From the NCBI GenBank assembly GCA_001916065.1, contig MNRS01000020.1, positions 55,969 to 119,968 of the forward strand: DNA of 64,000 nucleotides, read 5' to 3'. Within the stretch, counting starts at the first letter, position 1. Each line of letters opens with the position of its first letter. Both the position numbers and the translations under genes were made by a program. The notes beneath the pieces are model-generated. The model was not told where the DNA came from. It made no database searches and saw nothing but the letters and a program-made list of their open reading frames with translations. Shown here in pieces: positions 15,603-62,700 of the stretch. Source of the DNA: Clostridium sp. 28_17 (GTDB taxonomy: Bacteria > Bacillota > Clostridia > TANB77 > CAG-508).

Positions 15603-16268
15603 TTAATTTTTACATTTTGCAATTAATGCTTTAATCTTAATTCCCTGTTCTGAAAACATTTTCTCATGCTCTGTTTCTATATTATTTTCAAAAATTGGAT
15701 TTTTATGTAAATCATAAGTTTTGGCAACAACTTCAAAACCACTTTCTTCAAAATATATTAAACTTGAATTAAATAAATCATCATCATCTGTTTTAAAATA
15801 AACTTCTCCATTTTCTGCCAAAAATTGTTTATATTTTTCAAGTTGTCTTGTATGTGTAAGTCTTTTCTTTCTATGTTTTCCCTTTGGCCAAGGATTACAA
15901 AAGTTTATATATATTCTTTGAATATTATCTGTTTTGTCTAAAATCATTGGTATTCTTTCAATATCAAATCTTGTTAAAACAACATTGTCTGGTTCAATAT
16001 TTTTTTCTTGGTATACTTGTTCTACATTTCTTTTTGCTAGCCCAAGCATTGCATCAACTAAATCTATTGCTATATAGTTAATATCTAAATTACTTGATGC
16101 TAGATTTGATATAAATTGACCTTTTCCACATCCAAGTTCCAAATGTATTGGATTATTTGAATTTTTGAAAAATTCTTTCCATTTTCCTTTCCATTCTTCT
16201 GGGTTATCTATATAAAATTTACTTGCTTCTAATTCTGGTCTTGCCCATTTTTTGTATCTTATACGCAT
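15603..16268 (-). CDS. trmB: tRNA (guanine46-N7)-methyltransferase TrmB.
   Basis: 221 aa. SAM-binding [10 protein letters not shown]. TrmB-family length and motifs. Confidence 0.85.
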
Positions 16269-16508
16269 TTTAGTTTTCCTTCCTTAATGTTTTTATTAAT
16301 ATAATTATTTTTCCACTTTTATTTTAATTATCGTTTTTCATTTATCATTCCATAACAAATTATATACATATTTATAAAAAAAGTAAAGTAAAAATTTGTA
16401 TTTTTTGCACTTTCCTGTTACAATATTGTTACAATTCACAGTCCATAAAATTATTTTTTATATGCTGTGAATTGTAACACAATATTATATACTAAGAAGG
16501 AACAAAAA

Positions 16509-17384
16509 ATGGAAATAAATTATGAAATAAAAAATAACACACAAACAATAAACAGTACCTTACAAAATGAGCTAAAAATATCATCAAGGCTTTTATACAA
16601 ATTAATAAAATTAAATAAAATAGAACTTAATCACAAGCCTTGTGACACACGTAAAACAGGTACTTTCGGAGACACGATTACAATCAACTTTGATTATGAA
16701 GAAGATAATTCAAATATTATACCAACAAAAATGAATTTAAATATAATATTTGAAGATGACTGGCTTTTGGTTGTAAATAAACCTGCAGGAATTGCAATAC
16801 ATCCATCAGTTTTGCATTACTCCGATTCTTTGTGTAATGGTATAAAATTTTATTTTGACAAAATTGGTTTAAAGAAAAAAATAAGACCTGTTAATAGACT
16901 TGACCTAAACACATCAGGCTTAGTTGTATTTGCAAAATGTGAATATATTCAAGAATGTTTAATTAATCAAATGAAAAATAATCAATTTAAGAAAGAATAT
17001 TTAGCCGTTTGTAACGGATTTTTTGACAAAAAATCTGGTACAATTAATTTACCAATTGCAAGAAAAGAAAATAGTATTATTGAAAGATGCATTTCCGAAA
17101 ATGGTCAACCTGCCATAACTCATTATGAAGTTTTAAAAGAATTTGATAATTATTCTTTAGTTAAGTGTTCTTTAGAAACTGGTAGAACACATCAAATTAG
17201 AGTTCATATGTCTGCCATTGGTCATCCTTTGCTTGGTGATAGTTTATATGGTTCTATTTCTGATTTAATTAATAGACAGGCTTTACATTGCTTTAATTTG
17301 CAATTTATTCATCCTGTTTATAATAATGATTTGAATTTTTGGGGTGATTTACCTAATGATTTTAAAATTTTTGATATAAAATAA
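16509..17384 (+). CDS. RluA-family 23S rRNA/tRNA pseudouridine synthase. Start taken at ATG 16509, preceded by AAGGAA. The ORF track starts at 16467.
   Basis: S4-like N-terminus. Catalytic motif LLVVNKPAGIAIHPS and RLDLNTSGLVVFAK. Confidence 0.85.
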   Translation: MEINYEIKNNTQTINSTLQNELKISSRLLYKLIKLNKIELNHKPCDTRKTGTFGDTITINFDYEEDNSNIIPTKMNLNIIFEDDWLLVVNKPAGIAIHPSVLHYSDSLCNGIKFYFDKIGLKKKIRPVNRLDLNTSGLVVFAKCEYIQECLINQMKNNQFKKEYLAVCNGFFDKKSGTINLPIARKENSIIERCISENGQPAITHYEVLKEFDNYSLVKCSLETGRTHQIRVHMSAIGHPLLGDSLYGSISDLINRQALHCFNLQFIHPVYNNDLNFWGDLPNDFKIFDIK

Positions 17385-25680: not shown

Positions 25681-28288
25681 TTAAATCCACTCTTTATATT
25701 TTTTGATATAGATTCTCTTTGCAAAAGAAGCAATAATGCAATATAAAAATGTAACAACAAAAATCATAAACAAATATTTTGCACCAATAGGTACAAGTCC
25801 AATAGCATTGCCCAAAGTTGTAAATGGCACAACAATACCAACTAATATCAATAAAATTGATGATGCATATACATATTTATGAGCATTACTTTGAATAAAT
25901 GGAACTTTAGCAGTTCTTATTATATGCATTCCAACTAAGTTTGAAACTATGCTATAAGTAAACCAAATTGTTTGAAAATGTGATACATCTCTTAATCTAA
26001 ATACAAACCATAATGTTAAAAATACAACAATGTCAAATGCTGAGCTTACAGGTCCCATAAATAGCATAAATCTCTTTAAACTCTTGATATCTAGTTTCTT
26101 TGGTTTTTCTAACTGTTCTTTATCAACATGATCAAATGGTAATGTCATTTGTCCAAAGTCGTATATTAAGCCTTCAACTAATAATTGAATTGGTGTTTCC
26201 GGTAAAAATGGCAAAAATATACTTGCTACAATTACAGATACAACTTCTCCAAAGTTGAAACTTGTTGCCATTTTGATATATTTCATTAAGTTTACAAATG
26301 TACGTCTTCCGTTCTTCAACACCGTCTAGCAATACATTTAAATCTTTTTCAAGTAAAATTATGTCTGCTGATTCTTTTGCAATATCAACCGCTGTATCTA
26401 CCGATACACCTACATCTGAATTTGTTAATGATGGACTGTCATTTATTCCATCTCCCATATAGCCTACTACATTCCCATTTTGTCTTAATAGTCTTACAAT
26501 TCTAGCTTTTTGTATTGGAGAAAGTTTTGCGAATATATTTGACTTCTTTAATAAACGTATTACCCCAATGTCTGGAAGTTTTTCAATTTGGCTTCCTAAT
26601 ACAATATTTCTAGAATTTATTCCCACTTTTTCGCATACACATCTAGTTACATCAGCATTATCACCAGTAAGAACTATAACTCTAATTCCTGCTTTATTTA
26701 GTCTTTTGATAGATTCTTTCGCACTTTCTTTTGGTGGATCTAAGAATCCTATAAATCCAAGCAATATCATATTTTTCTCGTCTGATACTTCAAAATTTGT
26801 TTTGTTTTCCATATCATTTTTTTGGCAAACCGCAACAACTCTTAACCCTTCTTTGTTTAATTGTTTACTGATTTTTTTGATATTATCTTTAATTTCTTTT
26901 GTTATTTTGCTAACTTGTCCTTTATAGTCAACCATAGTACAGATGCTCAATATTTCTTCAACTGCACCTTTTGTAATTAATTGTCTTTTTTCTCCATCTG
27001 ATACAATAACTGATAAGCGTCTCCTAGAAAAATCAAATGGTATTTCGTCAATTATTTTATATTTTTCTGTAATTTCCATTAAATTATTTTCAGAAGCTCT
27101 TTTTATTACTGCTTCGTCTATGCTTCCTTTTAATCCAGTTTGAAAATACGAATTTAGAAATGCGTGTTTCAAAACTCTTATATCTTCATCACCATTTACG
27201 TCCAAATATCTTTCAAGTACGATTTTATCTTCAGTCAATGTTCCTGTTTTATCTGTACATAAAATATTCATTGCTCCAAAATTTTGAATTGAATCAAGTT
27301 TTTTAACAATAGTTTTCTTTTTTGACATTCTTATTGCACCTTTAGATAAACTTGATGATAAAATTACTGGCAATAATAGTGGTGTTATACATATTGCTAT
27401 TGCAACTGCAAATGTAAATGCTATTACAAATTCATGTTTTTCAACATTTATAACAAATACTAATGGTATCATAAACAACATAAATTTTATTAACAATCTA
27501 CTTATGTTTTCAATTCCTTTTTGAAATGCTGTTTTGGCTTTTCCAGCAGTTATTGTGTGTGCTATTTTCCCAAAATATGTTGAATCTGCAGTTTTTATTA
27601 CAACACCTTTTGCTGAACCTGATACTACATTTGTTCCCATAAAACAAATATTATCAAAATCTGATATATTATCAATTTCGTCTTCTTTATCTTCTAATTC
27701 TACAGTTTTCTTAACACTATCAGATTCACCTGTTAAAGATGATTGTCCAACATACAAGTCTTTTGCTTCAATTACTCTTAAATCTGCTGGTATCATGCTT
27801 CCTGCAGATAATACAACAGTATCTCCAATTACTACATCTTTAATTGGAATATCTATTTTTTTTCCATTTCTAATTACAGTTGTTTTTGTTGCAACCATTT
27901 TCTTTAATTTTTCTGCTGCTTTATTTGACCTATATTCTTCAAAGAAATCTAATAAAGTACTTGCTATTACTAATATTGCTATTACTATAATATTTGCATA
28001 ACTTGGTGCTTCAGCCAAAATCACGTCTGTATAAATTAATATAAGTGCAATTCCAATTAATATGCAATTAAATGGTGTGACCAAACTTTCCCAAAAATAG
28101 TTGTACCACTTTTTAGGTTTTGCTTGTCTTATTTCGTTTGGTCCTAATCTTCGAAATTTTTCTTCTGCTTCTTCGTTTGTTATTCCGTTTTCTGTTATTT
28201 TGTATTTTTGTATAAACTCATCTTTACTTATTTTGCTTTCACTTGCATACATTTTATTTATATTTACATCTTCTTTGGTATTCGCCAT
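25681..28288 (-). pseudogene. Mg2+/cation-transporting P-type ATPase (MgtA-like), read as two overlapping ORFs (26174..28288 and 25681..26322) because of a 1-nt frameshift at about 26308-26313 (plus tccgtt).
   Basis: DKTGTLT phosphorylation motif. TGDN and GDGINDSPSL motifs. Deleting the C of gaa-gaa-cgg joins the frames as ...LLDGVEEGRRTFVNLMKYIKM, matching the MgtA consensus (..EGRRTFxNMxKYIKM). Confidence 0.85.
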
Positions 28289-28429: not shown

Positions 28430-28924
28430 TTATTTTTCAAATAATACAATTTGATTTTGTTTTAAACTTTTTTGAACATCAATAACTCTTTGATTTGAAG
28501 AGCCTTTCCACTTTAAAGTAGGATTATGTAATTCGTCAACATATTGTCCATCAACTAAAACATCCAAATATTTAGCAACTTCTTTATCTTTTAAATCTTT
28601 ATCAAATTTAAAACCTGACCACGCCCATACACTTTTGTTAGGATATTTTGCTTTAAATGCTTTAGCTAATTTTGTAGTGTTTTCAATATTTCTAGGATGC
28701 ATTGGTTCACCACCTAATATTGATAGTCCTTCAATATTGTCATTATCTGATAATTCCAATATTCTATCTATTGTTGCATCTGTAAATTCTTTCCCGCCAT
28801 TAAAATCATGTGTTTCTGGATTGAAACAGTTTTTACAGTTGAATGCACAACCTTGCATAAATATTGATACTCTTACTCCTGGTCCATTTGAAATGTCCAT
28901 TTTTCTAATTTTATTATACCCCAT
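28430..28924 (-). CDS. nrdG: Anaerobic ribonucleotide reductase activating protein (radical SAM).
   Basis: 164 aa. CxxxCxxC-type cluster (GCAFNCKNC). Sits directly downstream of nrdD. Confidence 0.9.
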   Translation of the reverse strand: MGYNKIRKMDISNGPGVRVSIFMQGCAFNCKNCFNPETHDFNGGKEFTDATIDRILELSDNDNIEGLSILGGEPMHPRNIENTTKLAKAFKAKYPNKSVWAWSGFKFDKDLKDKEVAKYLDVLVDGQYVDELHNPTLKWKGSSNQRVIDVQKSLKQNQIVLFEK

Positions 28925-29007: not shown

Positions 29008-31173
29008 TTATTCATCATCTTTATTATCAATGTGTAAAACTCTTTCTTTTATTTCTTGAGTTCTTCCTTTATTCCAGAAATTACTTCCAATATAACCACA
29101 AGTTCTTCTTGCGACATTTAATGTATTGTGGTCTCTGTTTCCACAATTTGGGCAATACCATTCTAGATTATCATCAATTAAAATTTCTCCATCATATCCA
29201 CATTTTTGGCAATAATCTGATTTTGTATTTAATTCTGCATACATAATATTGTCATAAATAAATCTGATTATTTGTAGAACAACTTCTAAGTTATCTTGTA
29301 GGTTTGGAGTTTCTACATATGATATTGCTCCACCTGGACTTAATTCTTGAAATTGACTTTCTAATTTCAATTTAGAAAATGCATCTATTTCTTCAAATAC
29401 TGGTACATGATATGAGTTTGTTATATAGTTCTTGTCTGTTATTCCTTCTACAACTCCGAATCTTTCTTTTAAACATTTTGCAAATTTATATGTTGTTGAC
29501 TCAATTGGTGAACCATAAACACTGTAATCAATATCTTCTTTTTCTTTCCACTCTTTGCATTTTTCATTTAATTTTTTCATTACTTCAATTGCAAATTCTT
29601 TTCCTTCTCCATTATCTGTATGGCTCTTGTCTGTCATGTATTTAACACATTCATATAAACCTGCATATCCAAGTGATATTGTTGAATATCCACCATGTAA
29701 TAATGGATGAATTGGTGCTCCTTTTGGTAATCTTGCAAATGCTCCGTGTTGCCATAAAATTGGTGCAACATCACTCGTTACTTTGCTTAATCTTTCATGT
29801 CTTGCTTGTAATGCTCTATGGCATAGTTCAAGTCTTTCATCATATATTTTCCAGAATTTATTTCTATCTTTTCCAGATGTTAATGCAACATCAACTAAGT
29901 TTATTGTTACAACACCTTGGTTAAACCTACCATAATATTTTGGTTTGTTTGTTTCTGGGTCTACATATGGTGTTAAGAATGAACGGCAACCCATACATGG
30001 ATAACAATGTCCTTCTCCATTTTTGTCAACTTTTAATTCTTTCATTTTCTTTTCTGATATGTAATCTGGCACCATTCTTTTTGCCGTACATTTTGCTGCA
30101 AGTTCTGTTAAATACCAGTATTTACCGTTTTTATTAATATTGTCTTCTTCTAATACGTATAACAATTTTGGGAATGCTGGTGTTACATATACACCTTTTT
30201 CATTTTTGAATCCTTCTATTCTTTGTTTTAAGAATTCTTCTATAATCATTGCTAATTCTTCTTTATACTCATCTGTTTCTCCTAAGTACATACATACTGA
30301 TAAGAAAGGTGCTTGTCCATTTGTGTTTGTCATTGAATTAACTTGATAATTAAATGTTTGAACACCGTCAGATACTTCTTTTCTTGTATCTTGTTTTGCA
30401 TAATCTTCACATTGTTTTTCTGTTAATCCTCTGTCTTTGTATTTTTTATAATATTTATCATAACTACTTTTTACAAATGGTGCTAAATGTGATAATGATA
30501 TTGTTGCACCACCATATGTTGATGATGTAACACCTAAAATTATTTGCGTTGCTATTGTACATGCTGTTATAAATCTGTGTGGTTTTTCTATCATAACTCC
30601 ATTCATAATTGTTCCATTTTGTAACATATCTTCTAAGTTAATAAGTTCACAGTTTGTTAATGCATTTTGTGCAAAATAGTCTGCGTCGTGGAAATGAATT
30701 ATTCCTTCATCATGTGCTTTTACTATATCTTCTGGTAATAAAAATCTTCTTGTGATATCTGTGCTTGTTATTCCTGCTAAATAATCTCTTTGTGTTGTTA
30801 CAACTGTTGCATTTTTGTTAGAGTTTTCGTTGTTCCAGTATTCACTTTCACCTTCAATTAATTCTTTTATTGATTGGTCTGTTGTGTTTGCTTTTCTAAC
30901 TAATGCTCTTGTGTATCTATATGTGATATATGTTTTTGCTAATTGATATTTTTCTAATGACATTAATTTTTGTTCTATTATATCTTGGATATCTTCAACT
31001 AATATTCTTGATTTTTTTAGATCTTCAATATAAGTTATTATTTCATCAATTTCTGCATCTGTTGCTTTTTCTTTTCTTGATACTTCTTTGTTAGCCTTTT
31101 TAATTGCTATTCTGATTTTTTCTGGATTATAGTCTACTATTGATCCATCTCTTTTTATGATTTTCATTTCCAT
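29008..31173 (-). CDS. nrdD: Anaerobic ribonucleoside-triphosphate reductase (class III RNR). Start taken at MEMKIIKRDG, preceded by GGGGAGG. The ORF track extends it to 31212.
   Basis: N-terminal ATP-cone. Glycyl-radical C-terminus (..RTCGYIG..). Cys4 Zn ribbon (CQKCGY...CPNCG). Confidence 0.95.
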   Translation of the reverse strand: MEMKIIKRDGSIVDYNPEKIRIAIKKANKEVSRKEKATDAEIDEIITYIEDLKKSRILVEDIQDIIEQKLMSLEKYQLAKTYITYRYTRALVRKANTTDQSIKELIEGESEYWNNENSNKNATVVTTQRDYLAGITSTDITRRFLLPEDIVKAHDEGIIHFHDADYFAQNALTNCELINLEDMLQNGTIMNGVMIEKPHRFITACTIATQIILGVTSSTYGGATISLSHLAPFVKSSYDKYYKKYKDRGLTEKQCEDYAKQDTRKEVSDGVQTFNYQVNSMTNTNGQAPFLSVCMYLGETDEYKEELAMIIEEFLKQRIEGFKNEKGVYVTPAFPKLLYVLEEDNINKNGKYWYLTELAAKCTAKRMVPDYISEKKMKELKVDKNGEGHCYPCMGCRSFLTPYVDPETNKPKYYGRFNQGVVTINLVDVALTSGKDRNKFWKIYDERLELCHRALQARHERLSKVTSDVAPILWQHGAFARLPKGAPIHPLLHGGYSTISLGYAGLYECVKYMTDKSHTDNGEGKEFAIEVMKKLNEKCKEWKEKEDIDYSVYGSPIESTTYKFAKCLKERFGVVEGITDKNYITNSYHVPVFEEIDAFSKLKLESQFQELSPGGAISYVETPNLQDNLEVVLQIIRFIYDNIMYAELNTKSDYCQKCGYDGEILIDDNLEWYCPNCGNRDHNTLNVARRTCGYIGSNFWNKGRTQEIKERVLHIDNKDDE

Positions 31174-31456
31174 ATCCTCCCCTTGATTAAGTATGCACCT
31201 ATTATATATCATCCGGAAAGTTTTTCTGTTGCAATTGCAACATTTTATGAAAAAGATTTTTTTGCATTTTTTTGTCGGCTTGGCTCTAGGCTTTTTTCTT
31301 TTGTTACATTTTCGTTACATTTTTTGTAACGAATTCTGTAACCTTAAAAAGTTATGATAACGCAAAAACAGGATATAGAATTTTATCTCTTTTATCCTGT
31401 TTACATTTAAATATTTTTATCATAAAAATTCATTTATATTTCAAACGATTTTTTAA

Positions 31457-32122
31457 TTAGATTTCTAATTTTTCTATTTCTTCTTTTGTAAGACCTGTTG
31501 CTTTACTTATTACTTCAATTGATATTTTTTGTTGTAATAATTTTTTTGCAACACTTATCATTCCTTCTTTTATTCCTTCTTTTATTCCTTCTTTTATCCC
31601 TTTGTAATATCCTGCATCTTCTGTTGCTTTTTGGTCCATTATGTATTTTTCTCTTAATTCAGCCAAATATCTTTCATGCTCATCACTACTTATTTTTTCT
31701 AATTCTTTTTGGGCTTTTTTTATTGCTACATTTTCATCCATATTTACCACCTCTGGATTCTCTATAAATTTTAACCATGAGTCCACTTGTTTCTTCTTAT
31801 TTTCTTTATACTTTATGAACTTTGGTAACTCAATTATATACAATTCCATGACATCTGTCAATATAACCTGGCGGTATTCTTCCTCTCTTATTTGCCATTT
31901 TGTTTGATATTTGGGGATTTGTTTTAATGATTCTAATTCATAATCTGTTATTAGTATTGCTATTGTTTTTTCTAATTTTGAATAGTCTTTTCCTGCTTTT
32001 ATACTTTTACTAAATAATCTACTCCAATAAAACAATAATCTTCTCTCTATGTCATTTTTATCAACTATCTGCATCTCTATATCACAATTAATAGCACTAT
32101 TTATTTTTGCTTTAATGTCCAA
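31457..32122 (-). CDS. Rpn/YhgA-family PD-(D/E)XK nuclease (recombination-promoting nuclease / putative transposase family). The conserved N-terminus continues in frame upstream to about 32330 but has no canonical start codon, so this is possibly a degraded gene.
   Basis: The ORF starts at TTG (MDIKAK..). The upstream in-frame translation ..IVKLLNPKNDYVFKRIFGQIGNEDITASLISSIV.. is the hallmark Rpn N-terminus (LLxPKNDxxFKxxFG). There is no ATG or GTG between the upstream stop and that motif. Confidence 0.65.
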   Translation of the reverse strand: MDIKAKINSAINCDIEMQIVDKNDIERRLLFYWSRLFSKSIKAGKDYSKLEKTIAILITDYELESLKQIPKYQTKWQIREEEYRQVILTDVMELYIIELPKFIKYKENKKKQVDSWLKFIENPEVVNMDENVAIKKAQKELEKISSDEHERYLAELREKYIMDQKATEDAGYYKGIKEGIKEGIKEGMISVAKKLLQQKISIEVISKATGLTKEEIEKLEI

Positions 32123-60135: not shown

Positions 60136-60260
60136 TTTAATTCCTCCTTTGTACCTAATAATCTCTACATAATTTATACTATACTTTAATACAAATATCA
60201 AGATTTTTGCCATTTTTTTGTATTAAGTTTTTGTTACATAAATATTACATTTTTATTACA

Positions 60261-61692: not shown

Positions 61693-62700
61693 TTATTTTG
61701 ATCTTCCATCTAATGTATCTAAGTTATCTAGTGCTTTTCCGGTTCCCAATGCAACACATGATATAGAATCTTGAGCAATCATTACATTTATTCCAGTTTT
61801 TTCTTGTAATAATTTATCTAATCCATCTATTAAGCATCCTCCACCTGTCATATAAATTCCCTTGTCACTAATATCTGCTGCAAGTTCTGGTGGTGTTCTT
61901 TCTAGTACACTATGAACTGCATCTACAATCATCATTGCAGGTTCTATCAATGCTTCTAACATTTCGCTTGAATGTATTGTTGCAGTTTTTGGTAATCCTG
62001 TTGATAAATCTCTACCTCTTATTTCCATTTCTGCATCTTGAATTTTTGGATACACACATCCAACATTTATTTTTAGGTCTTCCGCTGTTCTTTCTCCTAT
62101 TGCAATGTTATGTTTTTTCTTAATATATTTTACTATGTATTCATCAAATTTATCTCCTGCAACTTTTAATGATGTGCTTACAACTGAACCTCCAAGAGAG
62201 ATAACTGCTATATCTGTTGTTCCTCCACCAATATCAACTACCATATTTCCACATGGTTTTGATATATCTATTCCTGCTCCTATTGCTGCTGCAATTGGTT
62301 CTTCTATTAGATATACTTTTCTTGCCCCTGCTTGTATTGCTGCATCTATTACTGCTTTTTTCTCTACTTCTGTTACTTGTGATGGTATACATATCATTAT
62401 TCTTGGTGCAAATATTGATTTTCCACAAACTTTTCCTATAAAGTGTTTTAACATTTTTTCTGTTACTGTGTAGTCTGATATTACGCCTTCTCTAAGTGGT
62501 CTTGTTGCTATGATATTTCCAGGTGTTCTTCCTATCATCCTTCTTGCTTCTCCACCTACTGCTAGTACATCTCCAGAGTTTCTATCTACTGCTACTACTG
62601 ATGGTTCTCTTAGTACTATTCCTCTTCCTTTTATATATACTATTACTGTAGCAGTTCCTAAATCTATTCCTACGTCTTGTCCAAATCCAAATTTTAACAT
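61693..62700 (-). CDS. mreB: Rod-shape-determining actin homolog MreB/Mbl.
   Basis: 335 aa. GIDLGTATV phosphate-1 motif. Actin-fold motifs throughout. No mreC/mreD downstream. Confidence 0.9.
   Translation of the reverse strand: MLKFGFGQDVGIDLGTATVIVYIKGRGIVLREPSVVAVDRNSGDVLAVGGEARRMIGRTPGNIIATRPLREGVISDYTVTEKMLKHFIGKVCGKSIFAPRIMICIPSQVTEVEKKAVIDAAIQAGARKVYLIEEPIAAAIGAGIDISKPCGNMVVDIGGGTTDIAVISLGGSVVSTSLKVAGDKFDEYIVKYIKKKHNIAIGERTAEDLKINVGCVYPKIQDAEMEIRGRDLSTGLPKTATIHSSEMLEALIEPAMMIVDAVHSVLERTPPELAADISDKGIYMTGGGCLIDGLDKLLQEKTGINVMIAQDSISCVALGTGKALDNLDTLDGRSK

Follow-up and report, generated by a model that had tools for sequence, protein, structure and literature searches.

Background

Several regulators of the OmpR/PhoB family share TGTAA-type half-sites, and head-to-tail hexamers of this kind repeated every 11 bp are a signature of the family. 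Sites of the same half-site class with a 10–11 bp register include the F and C boxes of Escherichia coli OmpR, GTAAA-N5-GTAAA (CpxR), the HLR1 element GTTACA of cyanobacterial RpaB and GTTAA-N6-GTTAA (SaeR of Staphylococcus aureus); the Pho boxes of Bacillus subtilis PhoP (TT(A/T/C)ACA) and E. coli PhoB (CTGTCAT) are 11-bp direct repeats, in pairs and tetrads, bound by a regulator of this family. An array of GTTACA/TGTAAC hexamers with such a register lies upstream of nrdD, which specifies the anaerobic ribonucleoside-triphosphate reductase, in a 64,000-nucleotide stretch of Clostridium sp. 28_17 (contig MNRS01000020.1, positions 55,969 to 119,968; the whole stretch is called the window). Sequence comparison shows that this block is a genuine, conserved cis-regulatory operator, the predicted ligand of which is an OmpR/PhoB-family response regulator with WalR-type specificity, a reading to which we assign a probability of roughly 0.6.

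The use of related half-sites by OmpR, CpxR, RpaB, SaeR and B. subtilis PhoP means that the motif does not in itself identify WalR. RpaB and WalR both act globally and are essential, in keeping with the housekeeping character of the targets described below. OmpR, CpxR, RpaB and SaeR belong to different phyla or govern different regulons, and to our knowledge none of them controls nrdD, veg or mreB. Pho boxes are similar in that the complement of the present hexamer, RTTACA, is one position (position 1) off the PhoP half-site. However, Pho boxes replace the -35 hexamer, whereas the present arrays stand 6–80 bp upstream of a good -35; neither pst, pho or phoU nor other phosphate-starvation genes were found among the array targets, and pst, pho and phoU are also missing beside the two-component system encoded in the window. 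The arrays are thus not Pho boxes. The nrdD control region also contains a palindrome which resembles the operators of class II Crp/Fnr promoters (~-41.5) and recalls the FNR-dependent activation of nrdDG in E. coli, being a 5-N4-5 inverted repeat ~41 bp upstream of the inferred start; its half-site is GTTGC, not the TTGAT of FNR. NrdR boxes occupy this place in other bacteria, whereas the window has no match near nrdD; one relative carries two NrdR-box-like sites instead of array and palindrome.

Closest in form are the operators of WalR (YycF, VicR) of the Bacillota, with the consensus TGTWAH-N5-TGTWAH (PMC9210968). The core of the nrdD array consists of two direct TGTWAH hexamers with a 5-nt gap and is identical to these operators in hexamer, spacer and head-to-tail orientation. 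WalR sites, like those here, may lie ahead of the -35 or on the promoter itself. In S. aureus, WalR activates or represses according to the position of its site relative to the promoter (PMC10746227), which is paralleled by the present layout, with arrays ahead of the -35 at nrdD, veg, trmB and the gene for a 104-amino-acid protein, and over the -10/+1 region at mreB. The growth-coupled, essential targets which WalR controls directly in S. aureus (rplK, dnaA, hup, prs; PMC10746227) resemble those found here, some of which belong to envelope or division functions (mreB, the murB operon, ftsE). Unlike WalR operators, the present arrays often contain 3–4 or more units and lie as far as -110 to -150, and no hydrolase was seen among their targets. 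Their density is also higher, with four exact sites in 64 kb versus 29 intergenic matches to TGTWAH-N5-TGTWAH in the whole C. difficile genome (PMC9210968).

The hexamer block upstream of nrdD

The four hexamers (Table 1) have start-to-start spacings of 11, 11 and 12, the last step being N6 and not N5, and on the minus strand, from which nrdD is read, their order is GTTACA-N6-GTTACA-N5-TGTAAC-N5-TGTAAC. In a preliminary description, made from the sequence without database searches, the block was presented as four hexamers at 31302-31342 with 11-bp phasing; the hexamers are real, although the start was placed one base early and the spacing is 11/11/12. That description also had the inverted pair following the direct repeat on the gene strand, whereas the hexamer order on the nrdD strand puts it distal, in front of TGTAAC-N5-TGTAAC. 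The core, TGTAAC-GAAAA-TGTAAC at 31319-31303, fits the WalR consensus exactly, as had been claimed, and the proposed OmpR-family architecture is borne out by head-to-tail hexamers in 2–4 copies and strict 11-bp register. All the traits of a generic OmpR/PhoB-family operator are present: a 10–11 bp head-to-tail register, a location at promoters in a conserved relation to their core elements, and an OmpR/PhoB-family regulator in the genome. NCBIfam and Pfam agree with the gene names originally given (nrdD, nrdG, mreB, trmB and an RluA-family gene). A triple array at 60233-60260 and the Crp/Fnr-type palindrome at 31227-31242 had not been mentioned.

The likely start of nrdD is the ATG at 31173 (or 31167), behind GGGGAGGA, and the start at 31212 given in the list of open reading frames (ORFs) is not favoured. 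The 721-amino-acid NrdD aligned over its full length with 80 orthologues. The closest, on contig CAKPJK010000005 of an uncultured gut Clostridia metagenome-assembled genome (MAG), is 100% identical, and this MAG was therefore taken to be the same species; the next is from Clostridium sp. CAG:389 (96%).

The 80 nrdD loci were taken from species-representative genomes (L001–L080); among the 36 closest, 28 have an exact TGTAAY-N5-TGTAAY ahead of nrdD in gene-strand orientation, and most of these arrays lie 130–170 bp before the ATG. An alignment of 19 array-bearing upstream regions (A1) showed three conserved blocks amid freely drifting sequence, namely the two hexamers, the palindrome (T)GTTGC-N4-GCAAC(A) and a (TG)nTATAAT -10 element. 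Every base of T-G-T-A-A is invariant in both hexamers, apart from position 3 of the proximal unit. The distal inverted pair is limited to the window and L001–L004; the palindromic look of the four hexamers is lineage-specific and the direct repeat alone is conserved. L001, the locus with the 100% identical NrdD, diverges from the window directly upstream of the distal GTTACA, the shared sequence beginning exactly there, which argues that the element travels with nrdD and not with the upstream gene. L001 carries unrelated DNA where the window has an Rpn-family gene. On its upstream side the nrdD control region is bounded by the terminator-like hairpin of this Rpn-family gene (-15.1 kcal/mol, z = -4.6).

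Behind the arrays, at ~12, 25 or 35 nt, there is a weaker motif, C(T)TAGAG/A...AAGC (~31283-31290 in the window). It stands ~12 nt after the nrdD array in L002–L017 and also follows the veg array in L131 and L141, its CTTAGAG part being ~70% conserved; in L010, L030, L032, L034 and L016 it forms the 5' arm of a terminator-like hairpin with compensatory changes.

The arrays were compared with expectation for a window of 27.4% GC. GTTACA-N5-GTTACA with up to one mismatch was observed six times against 0.38 expected, a count reached in none of 100 shuffles; exact TGTAAY-N5-TGTAAY occurred four times (0.12 expected) and TGTWAH-N5-TGTWAH seven times (1.87 expected). When direct TGTAAY pairs were counted at spacers of 0–15 in the window and L002–L036 (346 kb), 40 had a spacer of 5 and between 0 and 7 each other spacer. 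No spacer-5 peak was seen in the more distant loci L037–L080 (337 kb, similar base composition), and the 11-bp register is therefore specific to this motif and this clade. Tail-to-tail pairs at spacer 5 numbered four in the window and L002–L036, all of them from the window's own lineage.

The Crp/Fnr-type palindrome and the nrdD promoter

The GTTGC and GCAAC half-sites of the palindrome are invariant in alignment A1, and an exact GTYGC-N4-GCRAC is found within 160 bp of the nrdD ATG in 53 of the 80 loci. In about 45 of the 80 a divergent gene of the Crp/Fnr family adjoins it; together with a 5-N4-5 inverted repeat near -41.5 this indicates a probable class II Crp/Fnr operator. The copy of this gene in L059 possesses HTH_Crp_2 and cNMP-binding domains (Pfam), and no NCBIfam equivalog was found for the family. 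The L059 protein, the one member read through, has a single cysteine and so is not an Fe-S FNR. A Crp/Fnr-family gene of this palindrome-adjacent type is absent from the 64-kb window.

The palindrome lies 20 nt from the TATAAT in the window and 20–21 bp from it across A1. A simple -35/-10 scan calls no promoter for nrdD, because no -35 hexamer is present, as expected for an activator-dependent extended -10 promoter. The palindrome is more widely conserved than the hexamer array and is probably the main control site of nrdD; paired with its Crp/Fnr-family gene, it seems to stand in for NrdR in controlling the class III ribonucleotide reductase of these lineages. The NrdR box (a pair of 16-bp ACACwAtATaTwGTGT sites) had no match with up to three mismatches in 31150-31470; elsewhere in the window four weak matches were found versus 3.6 expected. 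The locus without palindrome and hexamer array mentioned above, L057, has its two NrdR-box-like sites (ACACAATATATTGAGT and GCACAATATATATAAT) ~60–110 bp upstream of nrdD.

Other arrays and the wider regulon

Three further arrays occur in the window (Table 1), and each of the four shows TGTAAY when read along the coding strand of the gene behind it. From consensus promoter hexamers, putative transcription starts fall near 62750 for mreB, 60166 for the 104-amino-acid ORF and 16352 for trmB. The mreB promoter (TTGATA-17-TATAAT, 62785-62757) agrees with the consensus at 11 of 12 positions, and the first unit of its array is fused to the -10, so that the array covers ~-17 to +21 of this promoter. 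The same fusion, TGTAATATAAT, is present in L166, L201, L202 and L203. In L201–L203, which were reached through MreB homologues, a -35 hexamer is followed by 17 nt, TGTAATATAAT and one or two more TGTAAY units, and the metagenome contig L166 has the same layout. The 104-amino-acid ORF has no Pfam or NCBIfam match; its homologues in L085 and L201 keep the upstream array, at 21 bp from their -35 hexamer, and in L085 its C-terminal half is 67% identical. In the region between trmB and the divergent RluA-family gene, a 14-bp inverted repeat (GTTACAATTCACAG / CTGTGAATTGTAAC, 16428-16441 and 16464-16478, 22-nt spacer) makes one hexamer of the trmB array part of a larger element with symmetry.

When metagenomes were scanned for the triple array, 120 loci were recovered, many of which were simple 11-bp satellites or came from unrelated high-GC organisms; the target list was drawn from the low-GC contigs. 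Downstream of the arrays in these contigs are veg (seven times; Pfam VEG), nrdD, mreB, ftsE, the glycine-tRNA ligase genes (glyQS) and yyaC, as well as pilin-like and conjugation genes and several without known identity; an array ahead of rpsJ (S10 operon) was found in one of the nrdD loci. Envelope or division functions are represented by mreB, the murB operon and ftsE, and functions other than the wall by veg, rpsJ, glyQS, nrdD and yyaC. On this sequence evidence the arrays define a multi-operon regulon in a clade of low-GC uncultured gut Clostridia, comprising nrdDG, mreB, the 104-amino-acid ORF, trmB, veg, the S10 operon, ftsE, glyQS and yyaC. The preliminary description had noted the recurrence at mreB and in the trmB/rluA intergenic region, where the arrays are indeed present, and had suggested a small regulon. 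The arrays at nrdD, mreB and the 104-amino-acid ORF are each kept in other species and a regulon is supported, but with veg, rpsJ, glyQS, ftsE and yyaC as members it is neither small nor purely devoted to the cell wall.

In L086, L167 and L195, reversed arrays lie between genes for small membrane proteins which resemble, by eye, pilin-type genes of conjugation or type IV secretion systems, and mobile elements of these hosts may therefore use the motif as well. In the window, an ORF for an MgtA-type Mg2+-translocating P-type ATPase (26174-28288, minus strand, 704 amino acids) aligns to positions 7-661 of an 867-position model and seems to be C-terminally truncated or frameshifted.

Table 1. Positions of the arrays, control elements and genes in the window
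Feature	Position	Strand	Basis or remark
GTTACA hexamers upstream of nrdD	31303-31308, 31314-31319	+	direct sequence reading
TGTAAC hexamers upstream of nrdD	31325-31330, 31337-31342	+	direct sequence reading
Conserved core, direct repeat TGTAAC-N5-TGTAAC	31303..31319	-	~-109 to -125 from inferred nrdD start
Distal inverted pair GTTACA-N6-GTTACA (+ strand: TGTAAC-N6-TGTAAC)	31325..31342	-	lineage-specific addition; -131 to -148
Perfect 16-bp palindrome TGTTGCAATTGCAACA, probable Crp/Fnr-family operator	31227..31242	none	centre ~-40.5 from inferred nrdD start
Inferred nrdD -10 region: TG 31211-31210, TATAAT 31206-31201	31201..31211	-	start placed near 31194, from consensus only
nrdD, anaerobic ribonucleoside-triphosphate reductase	29008..31173	-	NCBIfam NF006732, 896.7 bits (cut-off 657)
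nrdG, activating enzyme, downstream in nrdD operon	28430..28924	-	TIGR02491, 185.4 bits (cut-off 126.1)
Terminator-like hairpin of upstream Rpn-family gene	31366..31402	-	10-bp perfect arms 31366-31375 / 31393-31402, then UUUUUG
Rpn-family recombination-promoting nuclease/transposase-like gene	31457-32122	-	NCBIfam/Pfam; directly upstream of nrdD control region
mreB array TGTAAT, CGTAAC, TGTAAC, TGAAAC	62729..62767	-	four units, starts 62767, 62756, 62745, 62734; exact 11-bp register
mreB	61693-62700	-	NCBIfam/Pfam
Triple array TGTAAT-N5-TGTAAT-N5-TGTAAC	60233..60260	-	31 bp upstream of TTGATA-17-TATAAA
ORF of 104 amino acids	59821-60135	-	between mtaB and murB; murB, then yvcK-family gene downstream
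trmB array TGTAAC-N5-TGTAAC	16417..16433	-	29 bp upstream of trmB promoter TTTACT-17-TATAAT (16387-16359); known from window only
trmB	15603-16268	-	NCBIfam/Pfam
RluA-family gene, divergent from trmB	16467-17384		NCBIfam/Pfam
OmpR-family response regulator	2074-2742	-	Response_reg + Trans_reg_C (Pfam)
Histidine kinase	834-2069	-	HisKA + HATPase_c only (Pfam)
spoIIIA operon (AB, AC/AD, AE, AF, AG, AH)	2805-8146	-	directly upstream of two-component system

Orientation and spacing of the arrays

Eighty-five distinct arrays in low-GC sequence were classed by their neighbouring genes. None lies inside a called ORF; 59 aim at the 5' end of a co-directional gene no more than 450 bp away, two are co-directional but farther off, and four have no downstream ORF in the sequence examined. 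The remaining 20 face a gene encoded on the other strand, and in the 12 of these that were mapped the array sits between oppositely running genes and precedes the next gene in reversed orientation; one example is the conserved array that separates an rsmB-like gene from its neighbour. The occurrence of both orientations argues for recognition as DNA rather than as RNA. Since every hexamer contains a TAA and the 11-bp period is not divisible by 3, a triple array closes each of the three reading frames of the strand on which it is read; the absence of arrays from same-strand ORFs is therefore partly automatic. Upstream ORFs often terminate inside or right at the array, as in the veg, nrdD and mtaB contexts.

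The distance from the end of the array to the centre of the palindrome, for 27 arrays, is either 58–60 bp (seven arrays) or 68–71 bp (20 arrays), with none in between. The veg arrays stand 70–71 or 81 bp from a consensus TTGACA, and those of the 104-amino-acid ORF 21 or 31 bp from their -35. That the distances shift by one turn of the helix inside each of three independent gene families points to a protein which sits on one face of the DNA and communicates with the promoter.

Candidate regulators and alternative explanations

The leading candidate for the regulator is a WalR orthologue encoded outside the window; within the response-regulator reading, WalR specifically is plausible, although the odds are somewhat against it. 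Once activated, the regulator would oligomerise along one helix face. Arrays upstream of the -35 (nrdD, veg, the 104-amino-acid ORF, trmB) would let it assist RNA polymerase and, at nrdD, perhaps the Crp/Fnr-type activator as well; on the array over the -10/+1 of mreB it would act as a repressor. Supply of deoxyribonucleoside triphosphates (dNTPs) and cell-shape genes would in this way be tied to a growth or envelope signal. A bolder and more tentative extension is that growth genes at large are governed, in the manner of Fis, by one WalR-like winged-helix regulator. It would activate veg, the S10 operon, glyQS and nrdDG from phased arrays up to 150 bp upstream, repress mreB at -10/+1 and, at nrdDG, join an uncharacterised, cysteine-poor Crp/Fnr-family regulator that replaces NrdR.

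Across the 203 loci examined no regulator gene adjoins an array in low-GC loci, the only case being the unrelated L105, a metagenome contig of 57% GC. Here a triple TGTAAC-N5 array (1041-1068) lies ~110 nt upstream of a 953-amino-acid ORF (1181-4042) with a putative receiver, a putative OmpR-type winged helix and a long C-terminal region, as judged by eye and by tblastn (26% identity to a WalR sequence, aligned over receiver and DNA-binding parts). This array may reflect autoregulation and lends anecdotal support to the OmpR-family assignment. A literature search on WalR together with nrdD returned nothing relevant.

Several points weigh against an operator for a WalR-type response regulator. 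Binding to the arrays is predicted, and the transcription starts were placed from consensus hexamers only. For an activator of the response-regulator type, sites as far out as -110 to -150 would be uncommon. The array-to-(-35) distances are not in one phase across families, since the 21–24 bp class is ~3 bp off the 10/31/71/81 series; this offset rules out a single common helical phase, and the 10–11 bp steps within families are retained. The metagenome loci were picked by the motif itself, so that the target list is a sample and not a census, and no peptidoglycan hydrolase, the hallmark of WalR regulons, is among the ~25 array-downstream genes of this motif-selected sample. The response regulator of the window scores 176.5 bits with the YycF model NF040534 (cut-off 340), its best NCBIfam match, PhoB, is likewise below cut-off (201 versus 296.2 bits), and its DNA-binding domain is closer to the structures of CovR, RitR, ArlR and PhoB (50–56 bits) than to WalR/YycF (31–34).

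The two-component system to which this regulator belongs (834..2742) had been pointed out at the outset; its gene calls are confirmed, but it is not WalRK-like and nothing ties it to the arrays. WalK consists of an extracytoplasmic Cache/PAS-like domain, HAMP, HisKA and HATPase (PMC9210968). In the in-window kinase no HAMP, PAS or Cache domain was detected with Pfam and the outer loop between two hydrophobic segments is ~75 residues long, so that it is not a WalK-type partner. The YycF score, the DNA-binding domain, the kinase domains and the short outer loop together rule out this pair as WalRK.

That a common hexamer has merely clustered by chance in DNA of 27% GC may be counted as already refuted: single GTTACA/TGTAAC hexamers are indeed common (61 in the window), but 0 of 100 shuffles match the observed pair counts, the spacer-5 peak is exclusive and the arrays are kept at orthologous positions across dozens of species. 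It is improbable, too, that no dedicated protein is involved and that curved, UP-element-like phased A/T-rich repeats, or weak promoter-like hexamers, boost strong promoters. The spacers are often A-tracts (AAAAA, ATAAA) every 11 bp, GTTACA and TGTAAC each match TTGACA and TATAAT at four of six positions, and arrays precede strong consensus promoters such as those of veg and rpsJ; yet within TGTAA the G never changes and carries the most information, in contrast to the freely varying spacers (also in A1), the mreB array covers the -10 and continues beyond it, a position at which neither curvature nor an UP element is known to act, and the motif is clade-specific despite the similar base composition of L037–L080. 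An action of the 40-bp block as RNA or cruciform, for instance as a terminator, an attenuator or protein-binding RNA repeats, with the hairpin placed either in the leader of nrdD or at the 3' terminus of the transcript from upstream, is highly improbable. The inverted arm that allows the four hexamers to fold (-16.2 kcal/mol, z = -6.9) is found only in the window and L001–L004, and the direct repeats elsewhere cannot pair. Several species do have a terminator-like hairpin between the array and the nrdD promoter, but no U-run follows the hairpin of the block, the arrays track the downstream and not the upstream gene and occur in both orientations, and the putative promoter leaves the block upstream of the transcription start. 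With Rfam at the gathering threshold, the whole window yielded only RNase P RNA and no family at the hexamer block; lacking such a match, and with its hairpin missing in other species, the block is not a structured RNA leader or riboswitch.

Among proteins, a nucleoid-associated or global factor of the clade (for example, a GTnAC binder of the YbaB/EbfC type) or an uncharacterised factor polymerising on 11-bp repeats is a doubtful alternative to a response regulator. Its attraction is that veg, the S10 operon, glyQS and nrdD resemble a general growth set more than a stimulus-specific regulon, that arrays of 3–6 units at positions to -150 recall Fis-like upstream activation, and that arrays are also present in conjugation and pilin gene clusters. 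Head-to-tail TGTAA hexamers at exactly 11 bp nevertheless bear the OmpR/PhoB-family stamp, and no candidate protein was found beside any array. TGTAAT is as common as TGTAAC, so that a GTnAC palindrome is not required; the EbfC/YbaB site was rejected on the misfit of these TGTAAT units. That the in-window pair binds the arrays is unlikely. It is of the OmpR family and has the sole such regulator visible in the window, and the related half-sites ATTARA (CovR) and GTTAA-N6-GTTAA (SaeR) belong to its nearest structural relatives. Against it stand the lack of an array upstream of the pair, the scores below the NCBIfam cut-offs for YycF and PhoB, and a recognition-helix region reading NTLTVYIKRIREK, where that of B. 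subtilis WalR is, as we take it, RTVDVTIRRLREK. The pair also lies behind the spoIIIA operon, with no tie to any array-bearing gene. This operon indicates that the organism is a (former) spore-former. Such a genome probably encodes several OmpR-family regulators, and proximity within 64 kb therefore carries little weight.

Some further candidates were rejected. The hexamer resembles the -35 of extracytoplasmic function (ECF) sigma factors (TGTAAC, B. subtilis sigma-X) and the -24/-12 layout; an alternative sigma promoter was discarded as no CGTC-type or GC -12 partner was seen, by eye, at the right distance and A1 contains no conserved downstream partner. As a DnaA box, TGTGNATAA has three mismatches to TGTAAYAAA or is one base short. 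Dyads of the HcpR type (GTAAC-N4-GTTAC) and the BlaI/CopY type (TACA-N-TGTA) have the wrong orientation and spacing, the conserved element being a direct repeat and not a dyad, and NrdR boxes were dismissed as an account of the nrdD array since none is near nrdD.

Conclusions

The kind of element found here, a response-regulator direct-repeat operator, is already known; new are the set of target genes, which is unusually rich in housekeeping functions, and the group of organisms. The motif TGTAAY-N5-TGTAAY, in 2–4 units, can be used for promoter annotation and for the prediction of co-regulation in these MAGs, and it makes a putative regulon of dNTP synthesis, cell shape, wall precursors, division, translation and veg readable from sequence in organisms known only from metagenomes. 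At the anaerobic ribonucleotide reductase it points to a two-input design, in which a response-regulator array lies distally and a Crp/Fnr-type palindrome takes up the proximal place usual for NrdR boxes. Should the regulator be WalR, the arrays would extend to the Clostridia the link of wall homeostasis with replication and ribosome genes described in S. aureus (PMC10746227), and would offer a candidate explanation for the essentiality of the WalR system.

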